A stretch of 64,000 nucleotides of DNA from Schizochytrium sp. TIO01 (lineage: Eukaryota; Protista; Bigyra: Labyrinthulomycetes), in the NCBI GenBank assembly GCA_004764695.1, contig SMSO01000014.1:7398265-7462264 (forward strand), given 5' to 3'. The notes below the pieces were generated by a model, which saw only the letters and a program-made list of their open reading frames with translations, did no database searches and had not been told where the DNA came from. Numbering within the stretch: the stretch's first letter is position 1; every line of letters starts with the position of its first letter. Both the position numbers and the translations under genes were made by a program. Below, one piece after another: positions 1 through 57,557 of this stretch.

Positions 1-1
1 T

Positions 2-457
2 GGCCTGCGCTTTGTGGTGAGCAATGTCGTGAAGGACTGGGAGAATTACCAGTGTGACGTGACAGTAACCTACGATGCTTCTTACTTGAAGCGTACCCTA
101 CCTCCTCAGATTACCAAGATTGCGACTGGAGTTTACAAGCACCAGAAGGGCAGTGATTTGTATGACGACAGCAAGGGTTCCGTAACGGATAACAGTTCCA
201 CTTTGCTCATTGTTACCTTCAAAAATCCCAATCCAGGCAGCACGCGCCCATTCATTTGCAATGCCAAGAGCTGCTTTACACAAGGAGGAATGGGCTTAGG
301 AGGGCCAAACAACCAGAAATGCATCTTGCTTGGAGGGACTTCACAGGATTTCTACTTCCAGGCAAAGAAAGGAACCTTGGCAGGCAAAGAAGACGTTGCT
401 GTTATTTGTCTAGGCGAGACCTATACTCGCAAAATCAAGTTCACGCACCACAAGTAA
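2..457 (+). CDS. Hypothetical protein, 3' part only (frame open to window edge)
   Basis: Open frame from position 2 to TAA at 457, protein-like composition, followed by an A-rich tract. Confidence 0.6.
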   Translation, partial: GLRFVVSNVVKDWENYQCDVTVTYDASYLKRTLPPQITKIATGVYKHQKGSDLYDDSKGSVTDNSSTLLIVTFKNPNPGSTRPFICNAKSCFTQGGMGLGGPNNQKCILLGGTSQDFYFQAKKGTLAGKEDVAVICLGETYTRKIKFTHHK

Positions 458-583
458 TCAAAGTGAGTCGAAGAAAAAGAAAAAGGGAAACATGATTTAG
501 ACATAAGCAATAAAACCAAAAAAAACCATTCATTCATTCATTCATTCTCCTTAACCACTGGATGGCCCTCTTGAACTGATTAT

Positions 584-1924
584 TTATCCTCTTCTGCTTC
601 GCGCATCTTTCCAGTGGGATTCTGTTTCGGTTGCTTTCCATTGGAGGTTCTCGTAGAACAGGTCTTGATCCTTCACAAACACGAAGGTGAAGAAATCGGT
701 GAAACCATCAACCCTTTTCTCGATTTTGGTACCCTCTTTCATGTAAAAGGCAACCGTTTCGCAATCAATGGGTTCAAACCCAGTGATTTTGACCCAAGTT
801 CTCACTCGACTTTCCCCAGTACGGTCAGTAGCAGTAACGTTCTCATTGGGACTGTAGTCGTGCGCAGGCTCGATCATGATCTGAGGAAACCTATCTTTGC
901 CATACCCGTACTGGTTACGTCGACCGTCGAACATGCGATGTATCGCCGCCGACAAGGCTAAGCGATTATTGTCGTCGTCCTGGACGCCCGCAGCATCCAC
1001 AGCCGTCTTGTGAACTAGGTGTGCACAATCCGCCACCCCCTTTCGAAGAAAGAATGGGGCCTCAATCGACTGGAACATGGCTAAGTCCGAATCAGGTTCC
1101 ACAGTGGTGTACACTGTGCTATCGCTGTCACCACAACGCGCAGAGCCTGGCTCATCATCCGAACGATAGTCCGTGCTGTAAATGTTCTGGGTATTGTTGA
1201 CATAAACGACTTCAGGGTAAGAGAGATCAATGTTGTCATTATTGTATCCGAGATTATTCGACAAGATCTCGTTGCAAAACATAGCAGCATCTCGAGAGCT
1301 AGAGAAGATAATCTCGAAGGTCAAGTCCATGGGTGGGTTGTCTCCTTCGTAACGAATAGCTCTTCTATGCGATGGAACGTCCGTATCTTCGATTACCTCC
1401 GCAGACCCAGCGTTGTTGGCTGCCGTAAAGTACACGAAGCGACGCAGGCCTTTGGCATTCTTACTATCTTTGAGGGTACCACAAACCTTATAACACTTGT
1501 TTTCGATCTTTCTCGACCTTACCTCGGACACGACACCCCGCTGCGCCCCCCTTTCACTTACACTGCTACCTTTTTCGTAGCGCAGTGCGTCCATGTTCCG
1601 ACTAAGCCTATCGCGCTTCTGTTCAAGGGAATCGTAATACGCCGTTGCCGACCCATATTTTTTCTTTAGGAAAGCACTGAGGTCGTCGAAGGAAGCCCCG
1701 TCCGTTTCTTCCAAACGCTCTATCTTGGCCTCTACGTCAGCGATACGTGCCTCGATGCTCTCGATCTTTTCTTCAAGCCGATGTACATCTTGATCCAATG
1801 CCTCTAGTTTAGCCAACTCGAGGGCTTCGTCCCCTTCCTCAACTGTTGACAATCGTTTGCGGTCATCGCCGCCCCCGCCACCGCCGCGGGTTTGGTTTCC
1901 TTTACGACGGATGAAGGAAGCCAT
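584..1924 (-). CDS. Crinkler-like protein: coiled coil + central domain + C-terminal HNH-type endonuclease
   Basis: QSIE...CAHLVHK...DDDNNRLALSAAIHRMFDG matches the AH..NN.L.L...H..FD HNH signature seen in CRN-family proteins; paralog of 22804-24135; first ATG at 1924. Confidence 0.72.
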   Translation of the reverse strand: MASFIRRKGNQTRGGGGGGDDRKRLSTVEEGDEALELAKLEALDQDVHRLEEKIESIEARIADVEAKIERLEETDGASFDDLSAFLKKKYGSATAYYDSLEQKRDRLSRNMDALRYEKGSSVSERGAQRGVVSEVRSRKIENKCYKVCGTLKDSKNAKGLRRFVYFTAANNAGSAEVIEDTDVPSHRRAIRYEGDNPPMDLTFEIIFSSSRDAAMFCNEILSNNLGYNNDNIDLSYPEVVYVNNTQNIYSTDYRSDDEPGSARCGDSDSTVYTTVEPDSDLAMFQSIEAPFFLRKGVADCAHLVHKTAVDAAGVQDDDNNRLALSAAIHRMFDGRRNQYGYGKDRFPQIMIEPAHDYSPNENVTATDRTGESRVRTWVKITGFEPIDCETVAFYMKEGTKIEKRVDGFTDFFTFVFVKDQDLFYENLQWKATETESHWKDARSRRG

Positions 1925-2276
1925 TTTCTTTCGCTCGGATGGACTGTTGCTCTGCTGCACCTGCTGCACTTGCTTCAAGTCACGCCGGCCTGGTGATACG
2001 GAACTGCCTGAGTCGGGTGCACGGCAGCGATTCTACATTCATTAGGTTAGATAGAAGGGTAGAGCTTAGGTTAGATTAGGTGAAGTGTAGAGCTTAGGTA
2101 AAACAGACTTAAAACTGAGTGCAGCCCTGGCGTAGAAATAGCGGCGGCACAAGACGCACGGTACTGCACAGGCGCAAAGCTGGTTCTGCCCGCCCGGTCC
2201 CTCGCCCTTGCATCCGCCCGTCGGTTGTCTCTCCATCTCTGTGTTACGAAGAGAAGAGAGGAAAAGAGAGGGGAAG

Positions 2277-2362
2277 ATGGAGGATCAATCATTCACAGCC
2301 CAGAATCACGCAGTCGGTCCTAGCTTTTCTCCGCAGCCGCTCTCACCTCGACAAAGAAGAAG

Positions 2363-2397
<35 letters not shown>

Positions 2398-3590
2398 GCG
2401 CAGACTCAGCGGCGGCGGTCCCACTTTGGGAGCTAAGGCAGAGATATCACGACGATGACAGGGAGATACTCAAAGAGTTGTTAGAGAAGTTCAATCGAAA
2501 AACCACCCCCAAAGGAACCTCGCCTTCAAAGAAAACACCCTGGGAGCGCGTGGAATATTTCGTCATCCTGTTAGGCGACCCGCGCTTCATTGATCTTTTC
2601 AAACGCCTTAAGCGAGAGGAGTTGAAGAACTCAACGGGAGGCCGTAATCGGTGCTATGATAGCTTTTCAAAGTTGTTGAACCGAAGCAGCTTTTCTAAAT
2701 CGCAGAAAGCTCGCAGCGAGCAGCGCGCTTCAGCGCTTTCGTACAAACCGAAGCCCTTTACCAAGGAAGAAGAGAGTGCTCTGTTGTCGATTATGCGAGA
2801 AGAGGTGCCGCGTAATGCAGAGCGGTATTATATACAAAGAAGCCAAGATCGCTGTATTGCTTGGACAGAGGTTTCAAAGCGCTTCGATGAGATCACAGGC
2901 AGCTGCGATCGACCCGAGAGTTCACTCCAAACCAAGTGGAATACTGCACTGCGATGGAAATTTAGCGAAGACCTGAAATTGGGGGAGCTTGTACGCAAGC
3001 ACACCAAAGCAAGCGAAGGCCAGGCCTACAGAAATTACATAATTCTTTCTGAAGTGGATTGGGGCAAAGTTCTTAGAGATTTTAAGGATGATTCATTGAA
3101 TCCTACAATTGTCAAAAGGCGCGCTGTTCGCCTTGGTTTGGTGCGTAAGAAGGAGGCAAGTAAAAGTCTGGGCAGGCCCCGCGTGCGACCGAAGCCTGTT
3201 GCGATTTATTCTGATCGCCTGAGTGCCTCGGGATTGAGCGACATTCGCCTGAAGAATCGTTATTCGAAGGTGGAGTACGCAAGGATCTTTGAGGGCAATG
3301 CATACAGTTTCATTTTCGACTTGCATTCCCGTCAGGATTCAACGAACCCTTGTTACGACATGCTAGCGCCTGTGTTCACGCTTTTCAAGACTGAATTAGA
3401 GCCTAAGAGGGAACCGATAGATCCGCAAGACACTGCATTTCTTGTCACTCTTCATTTAAGTGAATGGAAGGCTGTAAAAGTTTGCCTGGAGAACTATGTT
3501 TTCAAAGCGGAGCGCTATAGAAAGCTCTTTAAACGATGCCTCATTAATTGGCTCTTTCCTGGTTCAAGGCCGCCTTTGCAAATGGATTAA
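2277..3590 (+). CDS. Myb/SANT-like (trihelix) DNA-binding protein
   Basis: FTKEEESALL...AWTEVSKRF...RPESSLQTKWN pattern, with a second degenerate repeat (EDLKLGELV...VDWGKV); ATG at 2277. Confidence 0.6.
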
Positions 3591-4717: not shown

Positions 4718-7312
4718 ATGGCTCTGCACCCCGAGAAGCCGTCGAATCTCGTACGGAGACCTTCAACGAGGTCTATTGTTGGTGTTTTTGAGAGAGTGTT
4801 GACTGTTTCTCGGAATTTGCAAGAGAAAACTGGTGAATTGGCTTCGAAATTGAAGGTTCTTGAGGCCCGTGTGCACGAAATTCGACCTTCCATTAATCCT
4901 TCCTTGGCCCTGGCCATTGATGCTGCAGTGAGAGGAGACGAAAAAGCACAGAAAATTGTACGAGAGAGTGAATCCAAAGTTCCTCTGTGTCAGAAAAGGG
5001 CGGTCGCGGCGTATACAGCGGCAAGCCACTCTCTCTTTCGTGTCCTTGCAGACACTGCAGCACTGGAGGAAACAAAGACAGAGTGTGCACTCTTAGTCTC
5101 TCAGGCACTCTCCCTTTTTCAAGTTGTTGAAGGTAAGCAAAACCCGAACACGATTGATAGGCCGTCCATTAGTGAAATCGTTAAGAGTGTGAAAGGGCTT
5201 GAAACGAGGCAAGAAGAAGAAGAAGAAGAAGAAGAAGAAGAAGAAGAAAAGGAGAAAGCAATGCCCTTTCCTCGTCTCTCAAGAAAGAAAGCCAAGCACG
5301 GCTTGTCTGCGCCCCTTCACGCGAAAGGGGACGGGACCACTCGGGATCAACGTGTTGGAAAGGCGGGAGGCGGAGACGGAATGGCGAGCAACCGACTTAG
5401 CATGAACAGTCGCTCGTCGCAGCGAACTGACAACGCGGGGATGCTTAACCGACTTGCCCTCTATCATGACCGTCTAAAAACTGAACAAGCTAGACTTGAG
5501 AAACTTGAAGATGAATTCCGAGAGCTGAAAAGGGAGCTACCTGACGGTGCTGCTCTTCTCCTTGATGATGTTTTAAATGGGGACGTTACGTTTACGAATG
5601 CAAGAAAAGACGTGAAGGAAAATACGAATTTAGAGGATCAAGAAAAGGCTTCTTTTCTTGGAGCTCTGCGCATAGCTTCTGATATGAAGGAAGCCCGGCT
5701 AGAAATCAAGGAGACAAAAGGAAAGATTAGAGAATTTGAGTCTGGAGGCGGTGAAGAAGGAGACAGCAATTGGCACTTCTCCGGATCAGTTTGGGAAGCC
5801 CTTGGGTGCGCTTTACCTGAAATTACTCACGATCCTTCTTTACCCGTATCAAACACGAATATCTCAAATACGGATAACTATCCTTTTGCCCCGAAGACTG
5901 TCCAGGGGATTGACTGGGATAATTTCATGGCATACTGCGCAGATAAAGGACATTTGGAAAAACTTCAGCAAGAATCAACTAATGAAAGTGTTGGTGATTT
6001 ACTTGAGAGGTCAATGCGCTCTCTTTATATAAAGTCTGAGAGTTCCGTTGGACTTTGTTTTTCACAAGTTTTCCAAGCAGTCATCTCTACTCTAGACTTC
6101 ATTCCAAAAAACCTCCGCTACACGTCTGACAAGTCCTCGACGGGTGGTCTTCGACCAGATTTTATTATTGGTACCGTCAGAGATGGGGTTACAGTACCTA
6201 TAAATCCCTTGCTTGTGGGTGAACTGAAGAGTTACAGTTCAGATTCTGAACCATTTTATTTCCGTTGGTGTGAAAGGGATGGACATGACCCTGAACGATG
6301 CCCTAATCGTGCTCATTCTGAGAGGCACACGAATGTGTCCCCAATTAGACAGTTGTATAACTACATGGTCGACTCTGGCAAGTTTGTTGGTGTTTACTCC
6401 CACTATGGCTGTACTGCGGCATTCTTCCGTGACTGTAAAGGCACTCTTGTTACAACACCGATGCTCCCTGACGACTCTGCTCCAATGAGCGTGCCACAGT
6501 TGCTCGCCTTGGTTATCATGATTGCCATGTCTGAGGAGGTGCCGGAATTTTACGACGGTAAAAGGCCCATTTTGGTGCCATGCGAAGGTACAAGAAGTTG
6601 CAAAGGTGTCAATCATCACCATACCAGTCTACCTGATGACTGTAAGTGGGCAGAGGACGATCTCAAGCGTAGCGCTAAACCTAGAACAGGAGCCACTGCA
6701 ACGAGAAGGGCGGCGAACAAGTCCCTTTACAAAAAGCATGACACTCCCATCACCTGGGGTGATCTCTACAACTGCAAGTACATTTCTGACTGCTACACAG
6801 GTAACGCAGTTGAGTGTGAGATCATGGGCGAGCGAGCAGTGGTTAAATACAACGATTTCGGCGATCACGAAGATGCTGATGAGCGTCTTGACCAGATTGA
6901 TTTTGAAGCTGAAGTCTACGCAAACTTGTCTGACTTGCAGGGGGATTGTATTCCCAAATACCTGGGCCATGGCTCCATTACCGATACTGATGGATCCCAG
7001 TATGGTTTTGCTACCTCTTATGCAGGCGAGTCACTCTCGTATGAATCTCTTGATTCTCTCACTGAAGAGTTCAAGACAAGCGTCAAGGATGCCCTAGACA
7101 AGATACACGCGCGTGGTGTTTTACATGGCGACCTGAGACTTCCGAACATCCTGAAGTCGAAGGACGATCCCGAGAAGGCAGTTTTTATCGACTTCAGTCA
7201 TTCAGGGATCTATGACGACCCTGATGATCAGTTCTTTCAAGACCACGCAAGGCTTGAGAAGGAGAACCTCGTCAAGCTCTTGAAAGGCGAAAAAATCAAA
7301 CAAGTTTTTTGA
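4718..7312 (+). CDS. Crinkler/FunK1-like protein: coiled coil + PD-(D/E)XK nuclease-like domain + protein kinase domain
   Basis: RPDF...VGELK...IRQLYNYM nuclease-like motifs; kinase motifs AVVKY, HGDLRLPNIL, FIDF. The true start may be ATG 5261 after a (GAA)n tract. Confidence 0.75.
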   Translation: MALHPEKPSNLVRRPSTRSIVGVFERVLTVSRNLQEKTGELASKLKVLEARVHEIRPSINPSLALAIDAAVRGDEKAQKIVRESESKVPLCQKRAVAAYTAASHSLFRVLADTAALEETKTECALLVSQALSLFQVVEGKQNPNTIDRPSISEIVKSVKGLETRQEEEEEEEEEEEEKEKAMPFPRLSRKKAKHGLSAPLHAKGDGTTRDQRVGKAGGGDGMASNRLSMNSRSSQRTDNAGMLNRLALYHDRLKTEQARLEKLEDEFRELKRELPDGAALLLDDVLNGDVTFTNARKDVKENTNLEDQEKASFLGALRIASDMKEARLEIKETKGKIREFESGGGEEGDSNWHFSGSVWEALGCALPEITHDPSLPVSNTNISNTDNYPFAPKTVQGIDWDNFMAYCADKGHLEKLQQESTNESVGDLLERSMRSLYIKSESSVGLCFSQVFQAVISTLDFIPKNLRYTSDKSSTGGLRPDFIIGTVRDGVTVPINPLLVGELKSYSSDSEPFYFRWCERDGHDPERCPNRAHSERHTNVSPIRQLYNYMVDSGKFVGVYSHYGCTAAFFRDCKGTLVTTPMLPDDSAPMSVPQLLALVIMIAMSEEVPEFYDGKRPILVPCEGTRSCKGVNHHHTSLPDDCKWAEDDLKRSAKPRTGATATRRAANKSLYKKHDTPITWGDLYNCKYISDCYTGNAVECEIMGERAVVKYNDFGDHEDADERLDQIDFEAEVYANLSDLQGDCIPKYLGHGSITDTDGSQYGFATSYAGESLSYESLDSLTEEFKTSVKDALDKIHARGVLHGDLRLPNILKSKDDPEKAVFIDFSHSGIYDDPDDQFFQDHARLEKENLVKLLKGEKIKQVF

Positions 7313-7418: not shown

Positions 7419-8168
7419 TTAGGTTACGGAGAGGATCTCTCGCAAGTGATTTTCCACTGCAGAACTTGTGTACTCACTGAACCGCCGCTTGTCTTTGGAT
7501 TGATGGCAAGTTTCGAACAATGCCAACGGATCCACTGTTGTTGCTGCTGATGCTGCTGCTGCTGTTACTTTAGTCGCTTCGGCGTAGTCTTGGGAGGGTC
7601 CAAGCAATGGAATTGGGCCCGGGACAAAGGAGTTAAGTAGCCACGAAAAGAGCACACGAGCGGTCCTTCCATTGCCAAATGCAAAGGGTTTGAGAAACAG
7701 GAACTTTGCTATAAATTCTGTCGCAACGTGCAAAGCATCTTGCAATGCGGCGGCTTCTATATCTTTTACATCTTGCTTTCCTGTGATCGAGAAAGGTGTG
7801 GTTTGGTATTTTATAATGTGATTCCTCAGTGCACGATCAAGAAGCCCAGGGGTTGGATGAACAAGAGGAATTCTCGTCAAATCACAGGTAATTTGGTGAC
7901 GCCTGAATGAGAATGCGGATGCACTTCGCAATTTGCTGCTGCTGTGGGGCTGGCCGAGGATGATTGCGTTAAGTTTGCAGAGAAACGAAAAGGAAAGGCC
8001 GCCATCATAATGCATTGCGAACTTGTAAGCTTCAACGAGGTTGGTTCTGTTTTTTTCTTCGGTTTCCAGGGCTACTCGCTGTAAAAACCAAGTTATCAAG
8101 GGGCCGTTTTGCAGTTCGCAGCGACTCCTTGCTTCTCGCGCTAGTTCACTCAAGTCAAGGCCGGTCAT
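7419..8168 (-). CDS. Fic/Fido-domain protein with variant active site
   Basis: KPFAFGNGRTAR versus the consensus HPFx(D/E)GNGRxxR; upstream LCKLNAIIL...LR segment typical of the Fido fold. Confidence 0.8.
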   Translation of the reverse strand: MTGLDLSELAREARSRCELQNGPLITWFLQRVALETEEKNRTNLVEAYKFAMHYDGGLSFSFLCKLNAIILGQPHSSSKLRSASAFSFRRHQITCDLTRIPLVHPTPGLLDRALRNHIIKYQTTPFSITGKQDVKDIEAAALQDALHVATEFIAKFLFLKPFAFGNGRTARVLFSWLLNSFVPGPIPLLGPSQDYAEATKVTAAAASAATTVDPLALFETCHQSKDKRRFSEYTSSAVENHLREILSVT

Positions 8169-9985: not shown

Positions 9986-10188
9986 GCATAATTCTTTCTG
10001 GAAACAAAAACAAAAACAAAAACAAAACAAAAACAATTTAGTTATTGTCGTAGGTTTGAATCGTCACCCTTTCAGGGGAGAAAGGCGAGTTTAGGTTGAA
10101 TCTTTTTTTCTTCCTTCTTCTTTCATTAAGTAACCTAGCTAAGTCGCATTGGAAATGAATGAATGAGTGGGGTGGGTGGGAGATTCAC

Positions 10189-10647: not shown

Positions 10648-10680
10648 TGCGTTTTTGTTTGTTTTGTTTGATTGCTTGGT

Positions 10681-10865: not shown

Positions 10866-10968
10866 TATTCTTTCTGTTCTTCCTTAATTTCTTCTTTGTT
10901 AAGTAACCTAGCTAAGTCGCATCGGAAATGAAATGAGCGGTGAGAAGGGCCGGGAGGATCTTAGGAGA

Positions 10969-13042: not shown

Positions 13043-13092
13043 TAATAATATATATTTCAAAAAGGTCCAAAAAGCAAAGCAAAGCAATTTAG

Positions 13093-24135: not shown

Positions 24136-24229
24136 CCGTCTGAACTTTAAAAAATAAAAACAAATTACCACTAAGGCGGAATGTCTCCGGGCCGTCTATA
24201 TTCTCAACCAGTTTTGCAGACAGTCCGCT

Positions 24230-24290
24230 TCGCCAAGTCAATTCTTATACTACTAAGGACCTTGACCTTCTTGAGCAAGGCATTCATCAG
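24230..24290 (+). repeat. 61-bp perfect direct repeat, copy 2
   Basis: Identical to 22363-22423. Confidence 0.95.
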
Positions 24291-24382
24291 AGTGTATATA
24301 AAGAAGAAAAACAAAATCCTATTTTTCCCTTACGTTCTTTTTATGATTTATCCCGTTTCCGCTATTGGAAACACCGTACTAG

Positions 24383-24628
24383 GGTCTATTAAGCAAAAAC
24401 ACTCCTAAACGTGCATTTGCGAAAGAAATCGGTGCAGAGCTTTGGTACATTGATGCTGATAAGCGACTTGGCGCTCTGCCCGAAGACGCCCATGCTACAG
24501 AGCGACTTGCGTGCACACCCGAGGCTCGCGCTGAGTGCGACGTTATCTTTGATAATAACGGGGAACACGCCGAGATTCCTCGCAAGCTAGAACAACTCAA
24601 AGAGCAATACAAAATAAACAAAGTATAA
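24383..24628 (+). pseudogene. Start-less fragment resembling the C-terminus of a deoxynucleoside monophosphate kinase
   Basis: Manual translation AKEIGAELWYIDADKRLGALPEDAHATE...CDVIFDNNG resembles the G..LI.I...D.H.SE...D.II.NNG tail; no P-loop part present. Confidence 0.4.
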
Positions 24629-24712
24629 AACACAAAAACAAGTTCATTCATTTAAAACAAACTTAATTTTAAAAGAAATCGAAAAACTCTAGACTTGCTT
24701 TTTTTCTCCTCG

Positions 24713-25066
24713 AAAATCAGGAACCCTTTGCCATTTTTTTCTTTTAAAGCATCTTTAAAAAGGTTTTTGCCTTGAACAAACAAAGAAACGAGAAGAAGAA
24801 AGAAAACAATACATAGGTACTTAGCTAAGAACAATGAGCGGAACTCATCAAGAGGTTCAAGTTGTGTCCACGCAACGCGGACACAATTGAAAACTCCATA
24901 GTATTACCAGCGCCTGGGTCGGCCACAGGAGAAACTGTGACAATTTCTCCGGGAGGGAATGCAGCAAAGTTTCCTATGCTTACTGAGAAGTTCGCTCGCC
25001 GCTTGATTTTGCGTTGCGGTCAGAAAGGCCTAGATAAGGACTACGCTGAGTTCCTCCTTGCCATTA
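24713..25066 (+). pseudogene. Third, internally deleted and truncated copy of the 21235 gene with its upstream region
   Basis: 24713-24833 duplicates 21106-21234; ATG at 24834 (MSGTHQEVQ) jumps out of frame to ENSIVLP...AEFLLA, then runs into the convergent gene. Confidence 0.85.
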
Positions 25067-25074
25067 GTGAGACC

Positions 25075-25479
25075 TCACTTGACCATCATAATGGCTTTTC
25101 TGGCTACGCTCTTCGCTGTGTCCTTCTCAGAAGCTGTTGAGGTCTGAGCTTTGCTAGCTTTTGCCGCTGCGGAGGAAGCGGACGACGAGGATTTATTCGA
25201 TTCCTCGCTTTCTTCATCTTCACCTTCTCCTTCCCCGCTTGCCCCCTTCAATGCGCTCTTCGCGGAGCTCTCCACGCTTCCGACTGCTGATCGAACACCG
25301 CCAAAGACAGCCTTCAGGATTCCTGTGAGAATCTCAGGAAGGAAAAGGAAGAGACCACCAAGCACAAGAAAAAGAATGAAAAGTCCAGCCAGACTGATTC
25401 CTTGTGTGGTCGCTTGAGAGTCTGCATCCAGGACTTGTTTGAGATCAGTCATTGCGTTCTTTTGTTCTTCTCGGGACAC
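25075..25479 (-). CDS. Small membrane protein
   Basis: One strong TM (LAGLFILFLVLGGLFLFLP) with an acidic/Ser-rich tail. Confidence 0.7.
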   Translation of the reverse strand: MSREEQKNAMTDLKQVLDADSQATTQGISLAGLFILFLVLGGLFLFLPEILTGILKAVFGGVRSAVGSVESSAKSALKGASGEGEGEDEESEESNKSSSSASSAAAKASKAQTSTASEKDTAKSVARKAIMMVK

Positions 25480-26069
25480 ACTATTTGTCTTGTACTACGA
25501 AAGTCTACTTTCTCTCTTTTCATCGAAGAAGAAATTTTACTAAAGACCACCCGACCTGATGAGAAACCCATCGCCACGAGAGCCGTCGCGAGAATGACCA
25601 TATACAGAATGAAAAGTACATTCACTAGCCCGCGGGCTAGCAGAACCTGCTTCTCCTCACCGCGGTGCGCAGCTTCAAAATGCCGAAGAACGCGGAACCC
25701 AATTGTCATGAGAGTGGTCGCGCAAAGAGAGAAAATCCACATAGCTCTCAATTTACCAGGAGGAAGTACCATGGTCACTCCTGCAAGCAGAGCAAGGACG
25801 ACCAGTGTAAGAGACGCAACAATACCATCTGTGACGCCGCTCATTCCCGTCTGAGCCAGCTCCTCGTCCCCTAAAACTGCGCCTGTCGTAGTGGTTGCTG
25901 CGCCACTGGTACTTGCATCTGCGAGCTCGGCGGCAACCATTTTATTTGATAAAACACGCAAAGGGTGTGCACCTTTCATTTTTTGTAAAGGATTCCTTTT
26001 ACTACTACTGGATTGCTGGCTTTGCTGCTGTTGCTGCTGAGACAAAAGCATTTCCTCCTGCTGCTGTTG

Positions 26070-26102
<33 letters not shown>

Positions 26103-26336
26103 ACGCTGGGCGCGGAGGGCGAGAGCAGCACGCTCCATCTGCTCCCTGGACATGCGGGGCTGAGCTTGCGGTCCCCTTCCTCCTGAGGAGGAGGAGTAAT
26201 AAGGGTTGGTATTCGAATAATCGGTCATCTCGGATGTGTCGTCTTCAAGCTGTCGAGCCCTTTCACGGGCTTGTCTGCGCGCGCGGAGCGCTGCGGCTCT
26301 GTTCATTTCTTCGTCTGCATGCATCTGACCGTACAT
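25449..26336 (-). CDS. Poly-Q protein with three C-terminal TM helices
   Basis: ATG at 26336 (frame open to 26420); three hydrophobic segments. Confidence 0.7.
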
Positions 26337-26603
26337 GATCCTGCTTGCTTGCTTACTTGGCTGGCTGCTGCTGCTGCTGCTGCTGCTGGCGGCTGTTGCT
26401 TCTTCTTTTTTTCTTTTCACCGATCAATCAATGCCTTTGATATTAATAATAATCAACAAAAGAAAAAGAATTAAAAAGAGAAGTAGTAAAAATACAAGGA
26501 ATGAATTTGAAAAGGGAAAAAGAAAGGACTTTGGTTGCTTTTTAATTCGAGTTAAGAGGGAAAGATTGATATTAAAAACGGTCATTCTTCATCATTCAAT
26601 TGA

Positions 26604-27401
26604 TTAGGCATTGAAGTCAGACAGCATACCTGGCACAGACTCATCATTCATGCTCTCGCCGTCGCCCGTGCCGTAGCCGTAATCATCGCCGGCGCCCCCG
26701 GAGCCGTCCATAAGCACGCAGCGGTTGAAGCTAGGACGCTGGAAGACCATAATCTGCTCAGAGCGAAGCTTCAATCCAAATGACTTTGAAGCGAACCAGA
26801 CTCCTGAGGTCGTGAGGAGTGCGCGGCATTGGGCACCCTTCTGCACGTCAGCTACATCCATCTTGGAGCCACTGGCGGTCCAGAAACTTGTAGCAATCTC
26901 GTTGCGGGACATCTTCAGGCCGGTGTTCAGAATCGGAGAGTACTTGCTTGGCTCGACGGGCGTGCTCATCATGGGCGTCATGAACTCGCTGATCACGTCA
27001 AGCTTCATGTTCTTGCGGAACCACGCCTGAGAGTTGGTGTGAGCAGCCTTAATGATGGCATTCTGGAGATTGCGAACCCATTTAAGGAACGCCACGAGCT
27101 CCTCACTGCCCTCCCATTGGTCGTCAGAAGTAAAGGTCGCTCCCGCCGGAATGTGCAGACCTGGGAAAGTCATACCTACGCTGTACTTCATTACGCCGTC
27201 ATCACCAGCGCGGTTAGAAATGCCAAAGGGCATACTCATGCGAGGAGTGGCCACATAAAAGGGCAAGAGATCGCCTTCGTAGCGCACCTTCACAGGCACT
27301 AAAATACCGCCGTGGTTGCCCATCGGCTTGGACGGCTCGAACACAAGATCATTCTCAAGGTCGATCTTCTTCCAGTCCAGAATCTTAGGCTCGTTGTCCA
27401 T
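26604..27401 (-). CDS. NCLDV-type (T7 gp2.5-like) OB-fold single-stranded DNA-binding protein
   Basis: TPRMSMPFGIS, NSQAWF.K, YSP.L, KGAQCRALL..GVWFASKSFG motifs and acidic C-terminal tail. Confidence 0.82.
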   Translation of the reverse strand: MDNEPKILDWKKIDLENDLVFEPSKPMGNHGGILVPVKVRYEGDLLPFYVATPRMSMPFGISNRAGDDGVMKYSVGMTFPGLHIPAGATFTSDDQWEGSEELVAFLKWVRNLQNAIIKAAHTNSQAWFRKNMKLDVISEFMTPMMSTPVEPSKYSPILNTGLKMSRNEIATSFWTASGSKMDVADVQKGAQCRALLTTSGVWFASKSFGLKLRSEQIMVFQRPSFNRCVLMDGSGGAGDDYGYGTGDGESMNDESVPGMLSDFNA

Positions 27402-27739
27402 GGTTGCTGCCTTACCGCTGCTGCTGCCGCTACTGATTTTACAAGGAGCCTTTTGGTTTTTTTTTGTCGCTAAGGGTGTTTGGGTTTTGCTGGCTGGGCT
27501 GGCCGGAGTTTCTTTTTTTCTTTTCTTCCTGTGTGTAGAAATAGCAAACTTGTCCTTTTTGTTCTTCTAGACTGAGGTTGGAGACACACAGAGATAGTTT
27601 TTTGCCTTCAAGTTTTTCTCCTGTTATATTCGCTGAGACAGAAAGAAAACAAGAAAAACATAACAACTTATATTGTGTGAACAAACTCAAGAAAAACCCA
27701 ACAAGAAAAAAAGGAAGGCGACAGGAGCTGGCACCCGTC

Positions 27740-29482
27740 ATGTCCTCAGGGAATGCCTCGCCGCAATTTACTCACAATCAGATCGGAGCGCCGTCAGGGC
27801 CTGATCCGGCGCGAGTCATCGCCGTGCTGGCCATGGTGCTGATTATTTGCATGATGCTTGTCTGGCCAGGCTTACTCAGTTACTGGTGGAAAGTCAAGCC
27901 ATGGCCTCCTAATGATGTAACCTCGCAGACGATCAATGCCGGCAAAACCCCACTCTGTGATGAAAACGGGAAACTAACGGCTGTAGGAAGAACAGTGGTG
28001 GTTAACCGTCTCGCTTTCTGGGATGATCTCTGCTCAACCAGCTTTACTGATCCTAACAATCCCTGCGACACTGAAACTGGACAACCGGTCGCTTATTTGG
28101 GGTGTGGATTGATGTCGAGAGACACTTCAACAGGCTCGCTCATGTGTGATGATCCCGATTTCCTCACGGCTTACGACAATTTTAAAACGCGCGGAGGTGC
28201 GTGCGCCAAGCTGGTAGGACAGAACTTTGCAAGGTGCAATTCCATTGATGTGGCTGCAGAGATCTTCTTACAGCCCACAACGGGACTCTCAAAACCTTAC
28301 AACGGCTGCACACCTTGCTCCACTGCGACAGACGCCTCGAGTCCTCTCTTCGGTCTCAGTGTGACGGATGGCGCGACTTGCTCGGTCGACCAAGTTTCAA
28401 TGGATTATTACTTGAAATTCAACCCAGATGTGCCCGCGACTTCGACCTCGCCGCCACTAGAGAAGTGCACTGACACAGAGTTGAATAATGGGTGCGTGGA
28501 CAGTATGGATACCTTCGCAAAATTGAGCCCGGGAGACTGCCTCGATCCGGCTTACCAGCTGCGCAAGACCACCTTTGTGAAAGCACTCAATGCTTGCAAT
28601 ACCCTGAAATCGACTTTACCCACATCTGGGCAGTCGGCCTTCGCGGACCAACCTCTTAGCAATTACTGCCCTTTGAAAGTGGCGCAGTTCTTCGCCAAAT
28701 GCGACAGCACGACCTATGATTGCACTTACACGCCAGTAGGCTGCACGCGAGACACAGAGGGCACACTGACTTGCCCAGACACAGTCTCAGATACCAAGCA
28801 GAAGGCCTGTTCGAATGATTATACAAACTGCACAGATGCAAGCTACCTCAAGGATGAGGCAGTGGAGGCAGAGTACGAAGCTAAGTGCACTGCTCGTGTG
28901 ACAAATTACAAGAACCGCAACAAGATTGTTATTGGTGTTATGGGGGCCCTCTACGCCTCCTTGTTTTTAGCCATCATTGTAATTTGCATCGTCTCGCGCC
29001 AGTCGCTCCATCTGCGCGTGGGCCAGCTCGGTACCAACCAGAACATCTTTCAGCAGCAAATGAACGGAACCTACACACAGATGATCATCCGCGAAGTTCT
29101 GATCTTTCTGATGGTGATGTGGTTTATTGTGGCCGTTCCAGTTGGGCTGCTTGCTCAGGGCTACCGCCTCTTTGTCTACAGCGGCTCAATGGATGCAGTG
29201 GAGCAGGCCAACTTCGACTCTTCCAAGACAGTCGTACGAATCCTCGGCTGGGTCCTCACGGGTATTACCACAGCTTCAATCATTACGCTCGCCTTCGTGC
29301 TGCTTGTGAGAGGTACCACGGGCGAGTTCCAGCCATCCTCGGGGATCAGCAGGGCCCAGGCAGATGCAGAAGCAAAACTCATCCTGGCCCAGGGCAAAAT
29401 TCTTGCCGCTGATAAAAAATCACCTCCTTCTCGCACGAACAGTAGTAACAACAGCGACCCTGGAAATTTACAACAACAATAA
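27740..29482 (+). CDS. Cys-rich multi-pass membrane protein (candidate virion surface/envelope protein)
   Basis: N-terminal TM, ~340-aa domain with more than 20 Cys, three C-terminal TMs; ATG at 27740. Confidence 0.75.
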   Translation: MSSGNASPQFTHNQIGAPSGPDPARVIAVLAMVLIICMMLVWPGLLSYWWKVKPWPPNDVTSQTINAGKTPLCDENGKLTAVGRTVVVNRLAFWDDLCSTSFTDPNNPCDTETGQPVAYLGCGLMSRDTSTGSLMCDDPDFLTAYDNFKTRGGACAKLVGQNFARCNSIDVAAEIFLQPTTGLSKPYNGCTPCSTATDASSPLFGLSVTDGATCSVDQVSMDYYLKFNPDVPATSTSPPLEKCTDTELNNGCVDSMDTFAKLSPGDCLDPAYQLRKTTFVKALNACNTLKSTLPTSGQSAFADQPLSNYCPLKVAQFFAKCDSTTYDCTYTPVGCTRDTEGTLTCPDTVSDTKQKACSNDYTNCTDASYLKDEAVEAEYEAKCTARVTNYKNRNKIVIGVMGALYASLFLAIIVICIVSRQSLHLRVGQLGTNQNIFQQQMNGTYTQMIIREVLIFLMVMWFIVAVPVGLLAQGYRLFVYSGSMDAVEQANFDSSKTVVRILGWVLTGITTASIITLAFVLLVRGTTGEFQPSSGISRAQADAEAKLILAQGKILAADKKSPPSRTNSSNNSDPGNLQQQ

Positions 29483-29493
29483 TAATAATAATA

Positions 29494-29907
29494 ATGGCGG
29501 AAATGCAGGAGGGGCAAACGCAGCAGCAGCAGCAGCAGCAAGTCGAGGACCCGCAAGCAGCGCTTAAGGAACTGAGAGATGGGTTCAGGGAACTTGTAAA
29601 AACACACAAGGAGAGGACCAAGGAACTGGAGAAGCTTCTTGCAAAGCGCAAGAAGACAAAAGCCAAGGCAAAGGCGTCGCAGCTCAAACAACAACTTCGC
29701 AAACTGGACTGGTCTGAGGGACTCACTTACTTTTTCTTCCTGATCGTCGTCATGTGCCTCCTGCTGGTTCTCTTCCTGGGCGGACCCCCGCCTGCCGACA
29801 AAAGCAAAAAGAATAAGACTAAAACAACCCCAAGGGGAGAGGCAGAACTGGAGGAGCAGCCTTTAATGATGCTTTTAGACGATGTTACTATTTTGGAGAG
29901 ATTGTGA
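29494..29907 (+). CDS. Coiled-coil + TM hypothetical protein
   Basis: Charged helical N-terminus, then YFFFLIVVMCLLLVLFL. Confidence 0.65.
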   Translation: MAEMQEGQTQQQQQQQVEDPQAALKELRDGFRELVKTHKERTKELEKLLAKRKKTKAKAKASQLKQQLRKLDWSEGLTYFFFLIVVMCLLLVLFLGGPPPADKSKKNKTKTTPRGEAELEEQPLMMLLDDVTILERL

Positions 29908-30507
29908 GGAAGGTTTCTCTGGCGCATTGAGCATGATATTGTACATGCGAATTTCGTCATCTAGGTTGTCTTTGCCCATCTTGCGGTCGCTCTGGTAAAT
30001 GTCTAAGAAGCGGTGCACATTTGTGTTCAGCTTGCGGTCCATGGAGGTCATCCATTGCCGCCAGCAATCTGAGTGTTTCGTATAGGTTTCGTAGCGGCCT
30101 GTAAGCATGAGAAACTCTGTTCCTTCTTCTCGCAAGTCGGCGTAAGCCCTCAGGTAAAGTGCGTAACTCGGGTAGATATTCAGAGCCTCCGTAAGCGTGT
30201 TGCCTACGGAAGCGGCGGACGAAAACACAATTGCAGCGGCAAATACGTAAATGCGGTACTCTTCTTCAACGTAGCTCATCAGGGGAATAATAACAGGCGT
30301 AACGAAACTGGATCCTATCACAATAACTCGCAGCAGCTTGCCAACAAATCCATAGTGATGGGCCCGGTTTCCTAGCATGTAGGGGTGATTCTTAAAGAGT
30401 TCCTTACAAGCATGCAGCTCATCCTCAGTTAGCGAATTGGTCACGACGTCTGCGAGCAAGTTCCAGGCTTCCACCAATCTGGCCGGTTTGTTCAAAGACT
30501 TTTCCAT
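29875..30507 (-). CDS. SLATT-domain (DUF4231-like) two-TM protein
   Basis: Two TMs followed by Y..YLRAYADLREEGTEFLMLTGRY, matching the SLATT C-terminal helix. Confidence 0.68.
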   Translation of the reverse strand: MEKSLNKPARLVEAWNLLADVVTNSLTEDELHACKELFKNHPYMLGNRAHHYGFVGKLLRVIVIGSSFVTPVIIPLMSYVEEEYRIYVFAAAIVFSSAASVGNTLTEALNIYPSYALYLRAYADLREEGTEFLMLTGRYETYTKHSDCWRQWMTSMDRKLNTNVHRFLDIYQSDRKMGKDNLDDEIRMYNIMLNAPEKPSSQSLQNSNIV

Positions 30508-30758
30508 GGCGGTAGGTCGTTTGGTGTGTTTTGTGTTCGAAGGGCTTGGTTTGTCGAATTGAGGGTAACTTGAAAATTATAGAAAAAAACAACCAAATGT
30601 CTGTGTGTAAGTGTGTCTCTATTCTCAGAAAATAACAGAGAAAAGAAAAAGAAAAAACCAAGGAAGCGTAAAAATCTATGTGCATTTATAACAGCGCAAA
30701 CGAGAAGTAAATAAAAAAACAGACAGCACTTTACCTTCAATCCTCTCTGCAAGTAGAC

Positions 30759-31445
30759 ATGGGCAGGCTACACCAGCGAAAATCTCGTCCTCGCTTCGAC
30801 TTTGAAAGAAACGAGAGCGACTTCCGGGATTTGGAACCAGGCTGGGGAGGTTCACAAGAATATGATGACGAGGGTTACGAGGAAGCACCCCCTCGCGGAA
30901 TCAAGGGGCGTGTGAAAGCCTGGGCGAGGCGCCACAAGAAACGGATTATCTGGATCTCTGTCGTATCCTTTTCTGTAATTGCAATCACGGTGGTTATGAT
31001 TGCAAAGGCCCACAGCGGACAAACTGCTTCAACCAACGAAGTGAGCCAAGCCACTCAGGCGATAGCAGATTCCCTTGCAGAGTCCCCTGAATCGATGGGA
31101 AATGGAGACAGAAGCGAAACGAGAAAATCCCGCGAGGCTAGGCTTCTGCGTGAGTACGAACAGGTCATGCGAGACGCCGAGGCGCACGCAGCCAAGTACA
31201 AGCGCATTTTCATGAGCGGAGGGGCTGGAGAGAACGGACAGGGGGGCTCGAGGCCCGACCTTTCACAAGAGGAAGAATTGATGGGGGAAGACTTCTCTCA
31301 TGATACTGGATTTGTGCAAAGCTTCATGGGCCCACGCACACTGGATAAGAAAAAGGCGGGGATGAATGCCTTAGGAAAAGAACTGAATGAACAGGCCAAG
31401 TACTTACGCCATGAAATCCAGAAGCTACAAGCAGACAAAAAATGA
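30759..31445 (+). CDS. Single-pass membrane protein
   Basis: Basic RRHKKR, then TM IIWISVVSFSVIAITVVMIA, then a helical domain. Confidence 0.7.
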   Translation: MGRLHQRKSRPRFDFERNESDFRDLEPGWGGSQEYDDEGYEEAPPRGIKGRVKAWARRHKKRIIWISVVSFSVIAITVVMIAKAHSGQTASTNEVSQATQAIADSLAESPESMGNGDRSETRKSREARLLREYEQVMRDAEAHAAKYKRIFMSGGAGENGQGGSRPDLSQEEELMGEDFSHDTGFVQSFMGPRTLDKKKAGMNALGKELNEQAKYLRHEIQKLQADKK

Positions 31446-31579
31446 CTGTCTAGGAGCAAACACAAACAACAGCAAGAAAGGCGAAGAAAAGAAGAACCGC
31501 CGCAGCCGCCGCAGACACCACAGCAACGCAAAGAGCGACTCGTCATCTTCTCAAGCAAAGTATTACTGAAGCGAAAACG

Positions 31580-32272
31580 ATGGCCGGAACGGCAGCGACT
31601 CCGTATACGCCGCGCAATTGGACGTTTGTCTTTCTTGCGGTGCTCAGCCTCGTGATCAGTGCCTTTGGACTTGCTTTCCTTATCCAAGGGTACAATGCGC
31701 TCAGTAAAAACTTGACGCTTGTCACAAGGGCCGCAGAAATTGTCCAGTCAGGGGCGGACGAGACAGGTGATTCCAGTGACTTCTGTCTTACTTCGGGAAG
31801 CAGTACCATTTGTTCAGGTGGCAACTATCGCATCCGTCTCAAAGGCACAAACCAGTATCTTCTTGCAGGCCTCGGCCTGGATCCAAGCCTAGCTGGTTTC
31901 GCAAGTCTTAACAGTGATACTTCGCAATGGCGCGTCGTTCTGCGCAACCTTGACAGCGGGTTCTGGAGTTTCTACAGTGCTTCGACAGTGCAGGCGGGTA
32001 GAATCTTGTCCTATCCTACGATTGATTCCACAGATACAACAACGGTATCTTGGCAAATTGGAATGAACCTTACAGGAGGGCAGAACTTTAAAATTGCAGG
32101 TGCCTCAGCCAACGACGGCAGCTTTGTAATCAGTGACGGAGTACTCAGCCAGGTTATCGAGCTGCAGAGCTACGCAACTAACGAAGAAGTTCTCGTCGTG
32201 CCCAAATCCCTCGCTTGCGTCTACCGCAAGTGCACAAGCAGCGACAGTAGGAACCATGCAAGTTGTCTTTGA
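31580..32272 (+). CDS. Membrane-anchored protein with possible beta-trefoil (ricin-B-like) domain
   Basis: N-terminal TM; repeats GNYRIRL..TNQYL / SQWRV..SGFWSF / QNFKI..DGSFVI. Confidence 0.5.
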   Translation: MAGTAATPYTPRNWTFVFLAVLSLVISAFGLAFLIQGYNALSKNLTLVTRAAEIVQSGADETGDSSDFCLTSGSSTICSGGNYRIRLKGTNQYLLAGLGLDPSLAGFASLNSDTSQWRVVLRNLDSGFWSFYSASTVQAGRILSYPTIDSTDTTTVSWQIGMNLTGGQNFKIAGASANDGSFVISDGVLSQVIELQSYATNEEVLVVPKSLACVYRKCTSSDSRNHASCL

Positions 32273-32395
32273 AAAGGTGCAAAGTTAAAATAAACAAACA
32301 AACAGTGGGGGCGGGCAGCTGATTTTTTTTAAAATGAAATTCTTACCCAGTTTATGAAATAAATCGAGGTTAGCTTTAGATGATTCATTCATTCA

Positions 32396-33124
32396 CTACA
32401 CGATAGTTTCTGTGGGTCCAAGGCTGATGTGCTCAAGGCCGGCCATGTTTATAGTGGCGCGGAGAACATCCGCGTCTTCACGGGGAAACACCAAGACGCG
32501 GTGGAACTGCTTAGGGTTGTAGCTGAGTGGCTTCTGTCTGATCTTCATGTAATTCTTTTCGAACCTCCACGCAAGCTCGTCGGCTTTCGCGCGCGGAATC
32601 GTGCCAAGACCTACGAAAAAGAAACCTATCTTCTGCGACTTCCCGGTCAGCTTCAATGGGTTGCGGGAGCGATTCAAGGCGACGGTGAATATGGCCTGTT
32701 CCATCAGGCGGGAATCACACTGTTTGGTTTTAATCGTGCCGCTGCGAGAATAGAAGTTGTAATCCGGCATTGCGTTGTGCTGGTTTATATACAGCTCAGT
32801 AAATCTGCATACAATCTCGTGCTCGAGATCAAGACGATAAGCGAGCCAGCGAATAGCTATGCCTCTCTTTGCAAAGTTTTCTTCAGGCCTGCAAGGGACG
32901 ATTCCATTAGGCCTGGGAATCAAGGCGGTGGTGGTCCTTTTAGAGTTCCAGAACCTGACATTACCACCAAGGCTTGTATTTTTGCAATGAGGAATCAGGG
33001 GGATTTGCGTGGGGGTTACCACTGAGCCCGCTACTTCCTGAGCTACGATAGGCGAAGACCGCTTCAGAATGGCGTGCAGAGCAGCACTACTCGGGGTATT
33101 CTTCTCCTGCTTGATGGGGTTCAT
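32396..33124 (-). CDS. Hypothetical basic protein
   Basis: ATG at 33124 after an A-rich leader; no family recognised. Confidence 0.6.
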   Translation of the reverse strand: MNPIKQEKNTPSSAALHAILKRSSPIVAQEVAGSVVTPTQIPLIPHCKNTSLGGNVRFWNSKRTTTALIPRPNGIVPCRPEENFAKRGIAIRWLAYRLDLEHEIVCRFTELYINQHNAMPDYNFYSRSGTIKTKQCDSRLMEQAIFTVALNRSRNPLKLTGKSQKIGFFFVGLGTIPRAKADELAWRFEKNYMKIRQKPLSYNPKQFHRVLVFPREDADVLRATINMAGLEHISLGPTETIV

Positions 33125-33428
33125 TCTTGCTTGCTTGTTTGTTTGCACTTACTTGCCTTATGGTAAAAACTTGCCAAGGGCGAGGAAATATACGACAACG
33201 AGTAGACTTTATTGAAGATTGTTGATGTTCTTTTTATAAATTCGAGGTTTGCTTTGGTTGATTGATTGATTGCTCGGTTGCTCTGCATGTTTTGCATTTT
33301 GATAAGAAGAAGATAAGGCGTGCTAGTAGTGCAATAAGACTCTTTAGGTTATTCCCTTTGTTATCTGGAAGATTTGAAGCAAAGAATTGTACTTCCATAA
33401 GTCCCAGTCCTTTTGTAAGAATGATGAT

Positions 33429-34244
33429 TCAGCTGGACATTTCCCCTGGATGGCTCGGGGTAGTTAGACCGTTAAAGAAAAACCTTTTTATATAGGTCAT
33501 TAACTCCTTGCAACTGCTACTGTGATATTTCACAACTTGGCCAAACCAGTACACTTGAAGCATTGCGAGCGTGGTTGCCGCGCCGAGCACGACGCGCGGC
33601 CAAGGAGTCGCGGCCTCCAGTTCCTCTGCGCCGGTCCAGAGCTTGGCTAGAACGAAGAAAGGGAATTGAATGACGCGCGTCTCGACGAAAAACCAAAGGA
33701 ATGCGGCAAAGACCATGAGCAATTCCTTTTCCGACAGCAGAGGCTGCCTGCGCGGGCAATCCTTCAAGCCCGTGACGTAAATTCCGATGTTGAGCATCAC
33801 CGTGCTTGACTCCATGATCAGAAAACGGGGCGCTAGGCTTAGAATATAGTTATCACCGCGCGCGATCGAAGAAGGGGCAGACATATAAGCAGCTTGCAAC
33901 AGGAGACATGCGAGATGGTGAATGCCGAAAACAATCCGCTTAGGTGAACAGCTGCTTAGGAGCGAGCTGGTGTAGTAGCCCGCGCTGTAGCCAACCACGG
34001 GGCTAAGGATCTCGTGCGGCATCAGGTCGAGCATCACTAGGCTTGCGCTTAGCGTGACGATGCTTGCATGCAGAGAAGAAGGCAGCAACCAAGCCCAGCG
34101 CTGCACCTGTTCTACCGTCCTAAATTTCGAAGTATAGACATCAAGAGGGTCCTTCACCACCTCGTACTCGAGGAAAGGTGCAGCATAGAGGTGCACTAGC
34201 GTGCTGAGGAAGGCTATAGAGAAACTAAAGACTTGGTAAAGCAT
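33429..34244 (-). CDS. TLC (TRAM/LAG1/CLN8) domain membrane protein
   Basis: SSLHA, SAGYY, IHHL, MESSTVMLN, FF..R, VYWF..VVK motifs and multiple TMs. Confidence 0.8.
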   Translation of the reverse strand: MLYQVFSFSIAFLSTLVHLYAAPFLEYEVVKDPLDVYTSKFRTVEQVQRWAWLLPSSLHASIVTLSASLVMLDLMPHEILSPVVGYSAGYYTSSLLSSCSPKRIVFGIHHLACLLLQAAYMSAPSSIARGDNYILSLAPRFLIMESSTVMLNIGIYVTGLKDCPRRQPLLSEKELLMVFAAFLWFFVETRVIQFPFFVLAKLWTGAEELEAATPWPRVVLGAATTLAMLQVYWFGQVVKYHSSSCKELMTYIKRFFFNGLTTPSHPGEMSS

Positions 34245-34428
34245 ACTTGCTCGCAAGTGAATGAACGAATGAACGAACCAAAGGAAAGGTGTTTGGGTTC
34301 TGCAGAAGACTCTTTGCTTGTCTACCAGGACAGCAGGATTAAAGAATAGGGGAAGAAAACTCACTTAACTACCACCAACCGTCTGATGTTGGTTTTTTTT
34401 TAAATTAGTTCCTTCCTGTGTTGTTTGA

Positions 34429-57526: not shown

Positions 57527-57557
<31 letters not shown>

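Follow-up and report, generated by a model that had tools for sequence, protein, structure and literature searches.

A probable integrated nucleocytovirus fragment beside a Ty3-like retrotransposon in Schizochytrium sp. TIO01

Introduction

The closest described counterparts of the locus reported here are the SmDNAV-like viruses, presented as 'Skiavirales' (10.64898/2026.07.28.741200) and 'Ariadnavirales' (10.64898/2026.08.29.747986) in two preprints, and the mirusviruses AurliV-1 and AurliV-2 of Aurantiochytrium limacinum (10.1101/2023.06.15.545109; PMC12606086). We have analyzed a 64-kb stretch of the Schizochytrium sp. TIO01 assembly GCA_004764695.1 (contig SMSO01000014.1, positions 7,398,265 to 7,462,264; hereafter the window), in which a block of open reading frames (ORFs) abuts a Ty3-like retrotransposon. 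That the block is derived from a virus is almost beyond doubt; we interpret it as the likely right-hand end of a nucleocytovirus genome that integrated recently into the chromosome of a likely thraustochytrid and is partly decaying there.

The Skiavirales preprint counts Herpes_ori_bp among 17 core genes, and the Ariadnavirales preprint describes a fused archaeo-eukaryotic primase (AEP)–helicase with intact primase motifs, a single-stranded DNA-binding protein (SSB) with an OB fold, OTU, many glycosyltransferases and the loss of polymerases. Integration is named for AurliV-2 only in the main text of the former, and the main text of the latter leaves 'integrated or co-sequenced' open. A literature search for integrated nucleocytoviruses in thraustochytrids, with preprint supplements outside its scope, gave for this host group the two AurliV reports only. 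AurliV-2 (LE-Chr15) resembles the present locus in being a large DNA virus genome within a thraustochytrid chromosome, but it lies between rRNA/LORE-TEAR arrays and carries HK97-type virion genes, PolB and a stand-alone primase, whereas here there is no rRNA, a long terminal repeat (LTR) element forms the edge and primase and UL9-type helicase are one fused protein. The giant endogenous viral elements of Chlamydomonas, Euglena and Acanthamoeba (10.1101/2024.09.03.611062; PMC12455990; PMC12210455) likewise consist of nucleocytovirus DNA in a protist chromosome, and in Euglena transposon invasion and duplications are signs of erosion similar to those seen here; these elements differ from the block in host supergroup and virus lineage. 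The cluster of giant-virus genes expected of such an element is represented here by the primase–UL9 helicase and the SSB.

Replication proteins

The fused primase–helicase and the SSB (Table 1) had both been named, the latter as gp2.5-like, in an initial annotation made from the letters of the window, and both were recovered by profile searches. The primase–helicase matched the herpesvirus origin-binding helicase family PF02399 (E = 7.7e-20) and the CyRepA1 profile NF042913 (E = 1e-42). It carries helicase motifs, and a pattern search of its N-terminal part located two CxxC pairs together with FDIDVD at 202 and SFH at 281, which we take to be motifs of the AEP type. A search of a phage collection gave two helicase matches, both weak.

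The SSB matched PF19196 (DUF5871; E = 4.9e-11). A search for its relatives at E = 0.001 gave 506 proteins, the best of them 41% identical. A Foldseek search of the PDB with its predicted model (predicted local distance difference test, pLDDT, of 90) returned CP312R of African swine fever virus (ASFV) as the top match (E = 7.8e-8), T7 gp2.5 (E = 9.7e-5) and the Enc34 SSB. The protein shares its fold and an acidic tail with CP312R and gp2.5 at a sequence identity of only ~10%, and binding of single-stranded DNA is predicted from the fold. In a structure search of BFVD, 43 of the top 50 matches were named and all 43 were nucleocytoviruses, a result biased by the likely poverty of BFVD in mirusviruses. 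A quick tree of 78 rows combined the SSB with 56 of the 150 listed matches (taken among the first 64, of 200–340 aa, with the self match removed) and 21 of the 36 fetched loci; the SSB fell inside a 42-row clade (SH-aLRT, the Shimodaira–Hasegawa-like approximate likelihood-ratio test, 96) with all eight metagenome loci, apart from the 13 included IMG/VR loci. Neighboring genes in these metagenome loci include DUF5832, DUF5767 and Erv1/Alr, the first two of which we assume to be nucleocytovirus families. Judged by these profile, model and tree comparisons, and with the library bias in mind, the predicted replication proteins are nearest to nucleocytovirus homologues.

The metagenome contigs with the nearest SSB relatives having context (L032, L033, L035 and L036) carry Erv1/Alr, DUF5832, DUF5767 and many orphans, and may derive from undescribed viruses of the SSB's clade. 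A publicly available SSB variant (P0004, 250 aa) agrees with the protein as far as residue 236, after which its tail differs and is shorter. A VLTF2-like motif seen by eye beside three SSB relatives received no confirmation from Pfam. A word-based search for the SSB returned only the SSB itself, and a narrow SSB alignment gave no relative in the IMG/VR or GTDB locus scans.

Viral lineage

In described gene content the block resembles the SmDNAV-like viruses in probably the same host group, a fused AEP and UL9-type helicase with intact motifs, an OB-fold SSB, OTU, a gene density near 0.9 per kb and no PolB or RNA polymerase in the 34 kb viewed (10.64898/2026.07.28.741200; 10.64898/2026.08.29.747986). 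Herpes_ori_bp with an N-terminal AEP domain, a combination that is not unique to the group, is present as the PF02399 match with its AEP motifs; the SSB match is strong and the OTU match weak. TopoII is likewise absent from the 34 kb, and described skiavirus genomes measure 190–252 kb. The primase does not correspond to the stand-alone PrimPol-like primase of Soporavirales (AurliV-1/2), being fused to a UL9-type helicase. The gene set appears to fit SmDNAV-like viruses better than the Aurantiochytrium mirusviruses, and an SmDNAV-like (skiavirus-like) virus overall is, on balance, the slightly favored source, as a gene-content match that leaves membership unproven. SmDNAV-like genomes are lytic (predicted linear) or circular-mapping, and without obvious erosion where examined, whereas the present block runs on into a retrotransposon and host DNA and contains broken genes. 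The initial annotation held that the lineage could not be fixed without a capsid gene; a capsid is indeed needed, but the fused primase–UL9 helicase, the OB-fold SSB and OTU already allow some narrowing.

Apart from the library bias given above, several points weigh against this assignment. The comparison with SmDNAV-like viruses is one of described gene content and not of sequence, and a Pfam scan found no capsid, A32 ATPase or VLTF3 gene in the window. Fused primase–UL9 helicases also occur in mimiviruses, ASFV and mriyaviruses (10.64898/2026.08.29.747986), so that the gene set, common to several nucleocytovirus groups in this respect, is not diagnostic. The SSB sits on a long branch (0.92) with no well-supported small clade around it, and Erv1/Alr is also present in mirusviruses. 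Three gene readings found no support, among them those for a TFIIB homologue and for antirepressor/NucS-like proteins, which belong to the described SmDNAV-like gene set: a word-based homologue search gave nothing for the two-domain protein encoded at 20,089, an antirepressor/NucS-like candidate by eye; a nucleotide kinase at 24,383–24,625 was not supported; and a likeness to TFIIB seen by eye in the orphan at 32,396–33,124 was not accepted, with no match and an unusable model (pLDDT 34).

The length of the SSB branch, the want of a small clade and the 41% identity of the best relative would also suit an integrated nucleocytovirus of another lineage, for instance an unnamed group next to the medusaviruses or a mriyavirus-like one, with arrival and upkeep alike. 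The breadth of the primase–UL9 fusion among nucleocytoviruses points the same way, as does the primase–helicase itself, for which neither the word-based homologue search (7,988 scored candidates) nor the IMG/VR locus scan gave a relative. We nevertheless consider another lineage unlikely: skiaviruses are the sole nucleocytoviruses that the consulted papers report from thraustochytrids, and the SSB relative L035 comes from a metagenome assembly with a skiavirus-like contig noted there, a circumstantial link (10.64898/2026.07.28.741200).

An integrated mirusvirus, of a third kind beside AurliV-1 and AurliV-2 and having taken a nucleocytovirus-type replication set, is very improbable. The one known chromosomal integrant in the host group is a mirusvirus (10.1101/2023.06.15.545109; PMC12606086), AurliV-1 has Fic and TLC genes (PMC12606086) and gene swaps between the two virus groups are described in these hosts (10.64898/2026.07.28.741200). 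However, the AurliV-1/2 gene tables list a stand-alone primase of ~380 aa and have no 'origin' (origin-binding), 'OTU' or DUF5871 entry, and three peptides of the block are absent from these tables (PMC12606086). Pfam and PHROGs, libraries without mirusvirus profiles, recognized no mirusvirus capsid, portal, terminase or triplex in the 34 kb. The terms PF02399 and DUF5871 occur zero times in the mirusvirus supplements, a count that is uninformative since the control term Evr1_Alr gave zero too. If the block is truly integrated, a nucleocytovirus is its highly probable source.

Junction with the retrotransposon and the chromosome

The initial annotation described viral DNA contiguous with a retrotransposon, decayed DNA and eukaryotic housekeeping genes, and this arrangement is confirmed: a Ty3-like element at 34,429–41,244, with reverse transcriptase, RNase H and integrase in the order of that class and two TG...CA LTRs, the 3' copy cut, is followed by decay over 41.7–55.2 kb and then by genes for a myotubularin and a Bud13-like protein. 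The virus meets the element sharply, within the 3' LTR. Letters beyond the 52-nt LTR stub differ from the intact LTR from the first base, there is no homology at the join to the intact LTR, and the 34-kb viral block has no integrase.

Contigs from four of 24 listed runs (X1, a possible source of the assembly, X5, X11 and X22) were compared with 28,001–42,400. In both X1 and X11, the latter from a separate study, a single viral contig ends at 34,458, 30 nt inside the stub, as expected where reads cross the join into a repeat. The initial annotation had proposed a comparison of read depth across 34.4 kb; in terms of contig depth, which is not copy number, the virus and the flank right of the element agree in X1 (386–406 versus 433), X11 (43.5–44.6 versus 39.5) and X5 (24.7 versus 23.6). 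X22 (0.03 of words) is barely covered, with short low-depth pieces of virus and host alike that do not make it an empty-site control, and uncovered parts in the X11 and X22 contigs were not taken as absence. Agreement of viral and flanking depth in three studies is unlike a free episome such as AurliV-1, found at ~9-fold depth (10.1101/2023.06.15.545109; PMC12606086). The junction read-through and the depth agreement together favor integration over a chimeric assembly and support the integrated large DNA virus of the initial annotation; we conclude that the block is very probably integrated, and taking integration and lineage together an integrated nucleocytovirus is probable.

The case for integration has its own difficulties, in addition to the limit on contig depth. 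The 30 letters past the join are one short of the bridging rule applied (31), the X5 contig stops at 34,430, only 2 nt into the stub, and no contig in the four runs extends from virus through the element into host DNA. A persistent free viral circle, carrying or abutting an LTR piece and stitched to the chromosome in the assembly via the multi-copy retrotransposon, would account for a join that lies inside a repeat family with no spanning contig; long-read genomes of the known persistent skiaviruses map as circles (10.64898/2026.07.28.741200), and the 30-nt read-through proves virus beside LTR sequence, not beside this chromosome. Such a chimera is nonetheless quite unlikely. Viral depth equals that of the flank beyond the element in three of the four compared runs, in X1 the element interior, taken for the variant found in the window, lies at roughly the depth of the virus (575 minus 174 at 34,735), and a chromosomal copy would account for the cut LTR and broken genes.

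At least 92% of the words of 26,000–35,900 are present in 12 of the 24 listed runs, from five studies, with four possible source rows left out. X5 shows no difference across 6,430 nt, and X11 departs from the window by a single substitution and a single indel across 28,001–34,458, a near-identity that makes one strain lineage likely rather than many separate hosts.

The sharp join at 34.4 kb, placed there by the initial annotation as the boundary between virus and host, may not be the edge of the insertion as a whole. The X5 and X11 contigs end at 41,724, and another X5 contig joins at 41,695 with 61 unlike letters; this contig has a depth of 44 in X5, against 24 for the virus and for the P-loop stretch beyond the element (41,245–41,694). 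The P-loop stretch, with a depth equal to that of the virus in X5, may therefore belong to the insertion, and the true virus–host edge may lie near 41,695 rather than at 34,428. The simplest reading of X5 is that DNA left of 41,695 is possibly present on one of two chromosome copies, the other being an empty allele; alternatively, a two-copy repeat begins at 41,695. X1 has no break at this position, which speaks against the proposed edge.

As regards the element itself, the contig depth of its interior in X11 is ~1,200–2,100 versus 44 in adjoining DNA, with a variant 97–98% identical to the window copy, whereas the left half of the interior reaches only ~1–3 times the flank depth in X1 and X5. 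This suggests that the family was recently amplified in one culture lineage. Two ORFs divide the pol region (34,498–40,700) between them. Near 36,305 a one-base indel separates the X11 variant from the window copy.

Organization and composition of the window

The window falls into four zones: the ORF block (1–34,428), which runs off the left edge at position 1, the Ty3-like element, decayed DNA (41,695–55,200) and eukaryotic genes (55,220–64,000). ORFs of at least 100 aa starting with ATG cover 77.5% of the block, against a mean of 16.7% and a maximum of 26.6% in 20 second-order Markov shuffles. The dense packing seen in the initial annotation is thus real, while its description as intronless was read from open frames. 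Coverage by ORFs is comparable (81%) among the host genes at 55.2–64 kb, so density by itself is no sign of a virus; we rejected it as proof of viral origin, and the viral claim must rest on genes.

Recognizable viral markers are confined to 12.4–27.4 kb, and 1–12 kb contains orphans, a Fic gene, a kinase and an HNH-like gene. The G+C content at third codon positions (GC3) is 0.67–0.71 in the primase, SSB and OTU genes, 0.45–0.55 in the genes at 1–12 kb and 0.33–0.45 in four host ORFs. Lacking markers and intermediate in GC3, the left third is assigned to the block by continuity. The same features would be expected of an old host gene island, built from separately acquired viral genes and host effector-like paralogues and viral only at ~12–34 kb; the equal ORF density of the host genes is compatible with it, as is the gap in GC3 between the left third and the primase and SSB (0.69–0.71). 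We regard such an island as most improbable: nowhere in 1–34 kb is there loss of CpG, the genes are packed without interruption and a paralogue of the HNH-like gene at 584 occurs among the genes of the part with markers.

The observed/expected (o/e) ratios of CpG (0.88–0.96) and CTAG (0.3–0.6) in the block contrast with those of the decayed flank (0.53–0.67 and 1.4–1.8). The block does not yet bear the mutational marks typical of old repeats, as would be expected of a young element, and the absence of any difference in X5 over 6,430 nt also points to recency. A three-frame reading of the assembled sequence finds, in the gene at 21,235–22,435, an in-frame TAG at 21,892–21,894 and a frame change near 22.15–22.2 kb. 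With this broken gene and scrambled fragments at 24.2–25.1 kb, the block reads as partly eroded. The phrase 'largely intact, possibly recent' in the initial annotation therefore survives in its second half, through the low CpG loss, and is overstated in its first.

In the decayed DNA, the abundance of CTAG and TAG and the scarcity of CpG hint that the host may have a C-to-T process directed at repeats. The decayed DNA also includes a near-perfect 61-nt tandem duplication at 51,606–51,729. No tRNA, rRNA or other Rfam match was found in the window.

Other genes of the block

The remaining features are collected in Table 1. The OTU-like protease proposed in the initial annotation is a weak call, but the protein also matches ORFs in five of the 36 fetched loci, all five from IMG/VR. 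The proposed glycosyltransferase (13,450–14,364) was not confirmed, with no glycosyltransferase or other family match in Pfam, PHROGs or NCBIfam. Between these two genes, and outside the ORF count, a small open frame on the reverse strand (13,096–13,296) encodes a C-terminal hydrophobic stretch. The coiled-coil and HNH-like protein at 584–1,924 may have a Crinkler-type architecture. The middle part of the 4,718–7,312 protein looks PD-(D/E)XK-like by eye only. The product of 27,740–29,482 is likely a virion membrane protein. Single-protein locus scans of block proteins gave no relative in IMG/VR or GTDB.

Three tandem units of 60–63 nt lie at 10,680–10,876, among the triplicated genes. The motif CTAGCTAAG is common to spacers in 10,104–12,222, and the related TTAGCTAAG occurs at 21,222, before the gene at 21,235, and at 24,821. 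The tandem units and both motifs are possibly regulatory.

Table 1. Features of the window (positions in the 64-kb stretch)
Feature	Position	Strand	Remarks
Virus-derived gene block	1–34428	.	~29 ORFs; GC 48.5%; CpG o/e 0.88–0.96; open at left window edge
Orphan ORF, 3' part, entering from left	2–457	+	No family match
Coiled-coil and HNH-like protein	584–1924	-	30% identity to paralogue 22861–24135; HNH_2 E 0.2
Orphan with faint Myb-like stretch	2277–3590	+	PF13921 E 0.51
Coiled-coil protein, C-terminal kinase-like domain	4718–7312	+	PF01636 E 1.6e-4; Bud32/LanKC kinase matches
Fic-domain protein	7419–8168	-	PF02661 E 1.7e-5, above cut-off
Tandem triplicate of 151–152 aa orphan	10189–12079	-	Copies 61–77% identical; spacers repeated
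OTU-like cysteine protease, weak	12374–13042	+	PF02338 E 0.024; GC3 0.67
Membrane-anchored protein	13450–14364	+	Hydrophobic stretch at residue 11; glycosyltransferase likeness by eye only
Fused primase, zinc finger and UL9-type superfamily 2 helicase	14324–19348	-	1674 aa; GC3 0.71
Two-domain protein	20089–21030	+	Antirepressor-like N-terminus and PD-(D/E)XK C-terminus by eye only; no match at E 0.01
Broken paralogue of 20089 gene	21235–22435	+	70% identity over 198 aa; stop and frame change
Coiled-coil and HNH-like protein	22861–24135	+	Flanked by 88-nt direct repeats 22339–22426 and 24205–24293
Scrambled fragments	24181–25070	+	Partial copies of 21235 gene and a start-less 81-codon frame
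Two small membrane-protein orphans	25075–26336	-	Small orphans
OB-fold SSB	26604–27401	-	265 aa; PF19196/DUF5871; GC3 0.69–0.71 (range with primase)
Membrane protein, 580 aa	27740–29482	+	24 cysteines; four hydrophobic stretches; atlas search without usable match
Cluster of small membrane proteins, SLATT-like protein, orphan	29494–33124	.	SLATT-like 29875–30507, NF033634 E 3.4e-6; orphan 32396–33124
TLC-domain membrane protein, final gene before join	33429–34244	-	PF03798 E 3.7e-13; GC3 0.64
3' LTR stub	34429–34480	-	First 52 of 483 nt, identical to 5' LTR; cut by viral DNA
Ty3-like retrotransposon interior	34481–40761	-	gag-pol ORF 35940–40700; separate integrase ORF 34498–35802; PF00078, PF17919, PF00665
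Complete 5' LTR	40762–41244	-	483 nt, TGT...ACA; contig loose ends at 40762 and 41244–41246
P-loop ATPase-like gene, 5' half, cut by LTR	41245–41694	-	41245–41632, AAA_22 E 0.021; CpG not depleted
Decayed host DNA	41695–55200	.	AT-rich; no ORF of at least 100 aa; CpG o/e 0.53–0.67; older LTR relics ~45970–46367 and 48829–48914
Host myotubularin	59386–61212	-	E 2e-116; 606/608 residues identical to MMETSP/JGI transcript product

Functional implications

In the free virus, the primase–UL9 helicase would bind and prime origins together with the SSB, and the virus would lean on host nuclear polymerases, as proposed for the SmDNAV-like group. Once integrated, the block would be replicated passively, and each chromosome that carries it would have about one copy. 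In the order of events that we favor, end-joining would have linked viral DNA to the chromosome near 41,695, the retrotransposon would then have entered the P-loop gene situated where the insertion ends, and a subsequent deletion would have taken 431 nt of the 3' LTR and the remainder of the P-loop gene. If instead the virus broke directly into an LTR that was already there, which is the less likely order, the 431 nt now missing should be located at the virus's far left end.

Tentatively, the locus could be the first chromosomally integrated skiavirus, a recent provirus of a much-sequenced thraustochytrid lineage, which some cultures would carry on a single chromosome copy and others on both copies, and whose genome of ~200 kb would lie mostly left of the window; this fuller picture is possible but doubtful. 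Giant endogenous viral elements are well known as such, and the surprise would be moderate; should capsid markers place the virus in Skiavirales and long reads cross the join, integration would be a new state for the virus group. The Skiavirales preprint does not decide between inheritance by every cell and re-seeding of the culture from a few producers (10.64898/2026.07.28.741200), and vertical inheritance becomes testable with a chromosomal copy whose edge can be mapped. The presence of the same DNA in runs of at least five independent studies means that existing genome and RNA data can be reused. If the picture is correct, integration would be one way in which polymerase-less viruses persist for decades in healthy cultures, with the empty allele as a matched virus-free control, and would offer a route for the virus–host gene exchange reported in that preprint.

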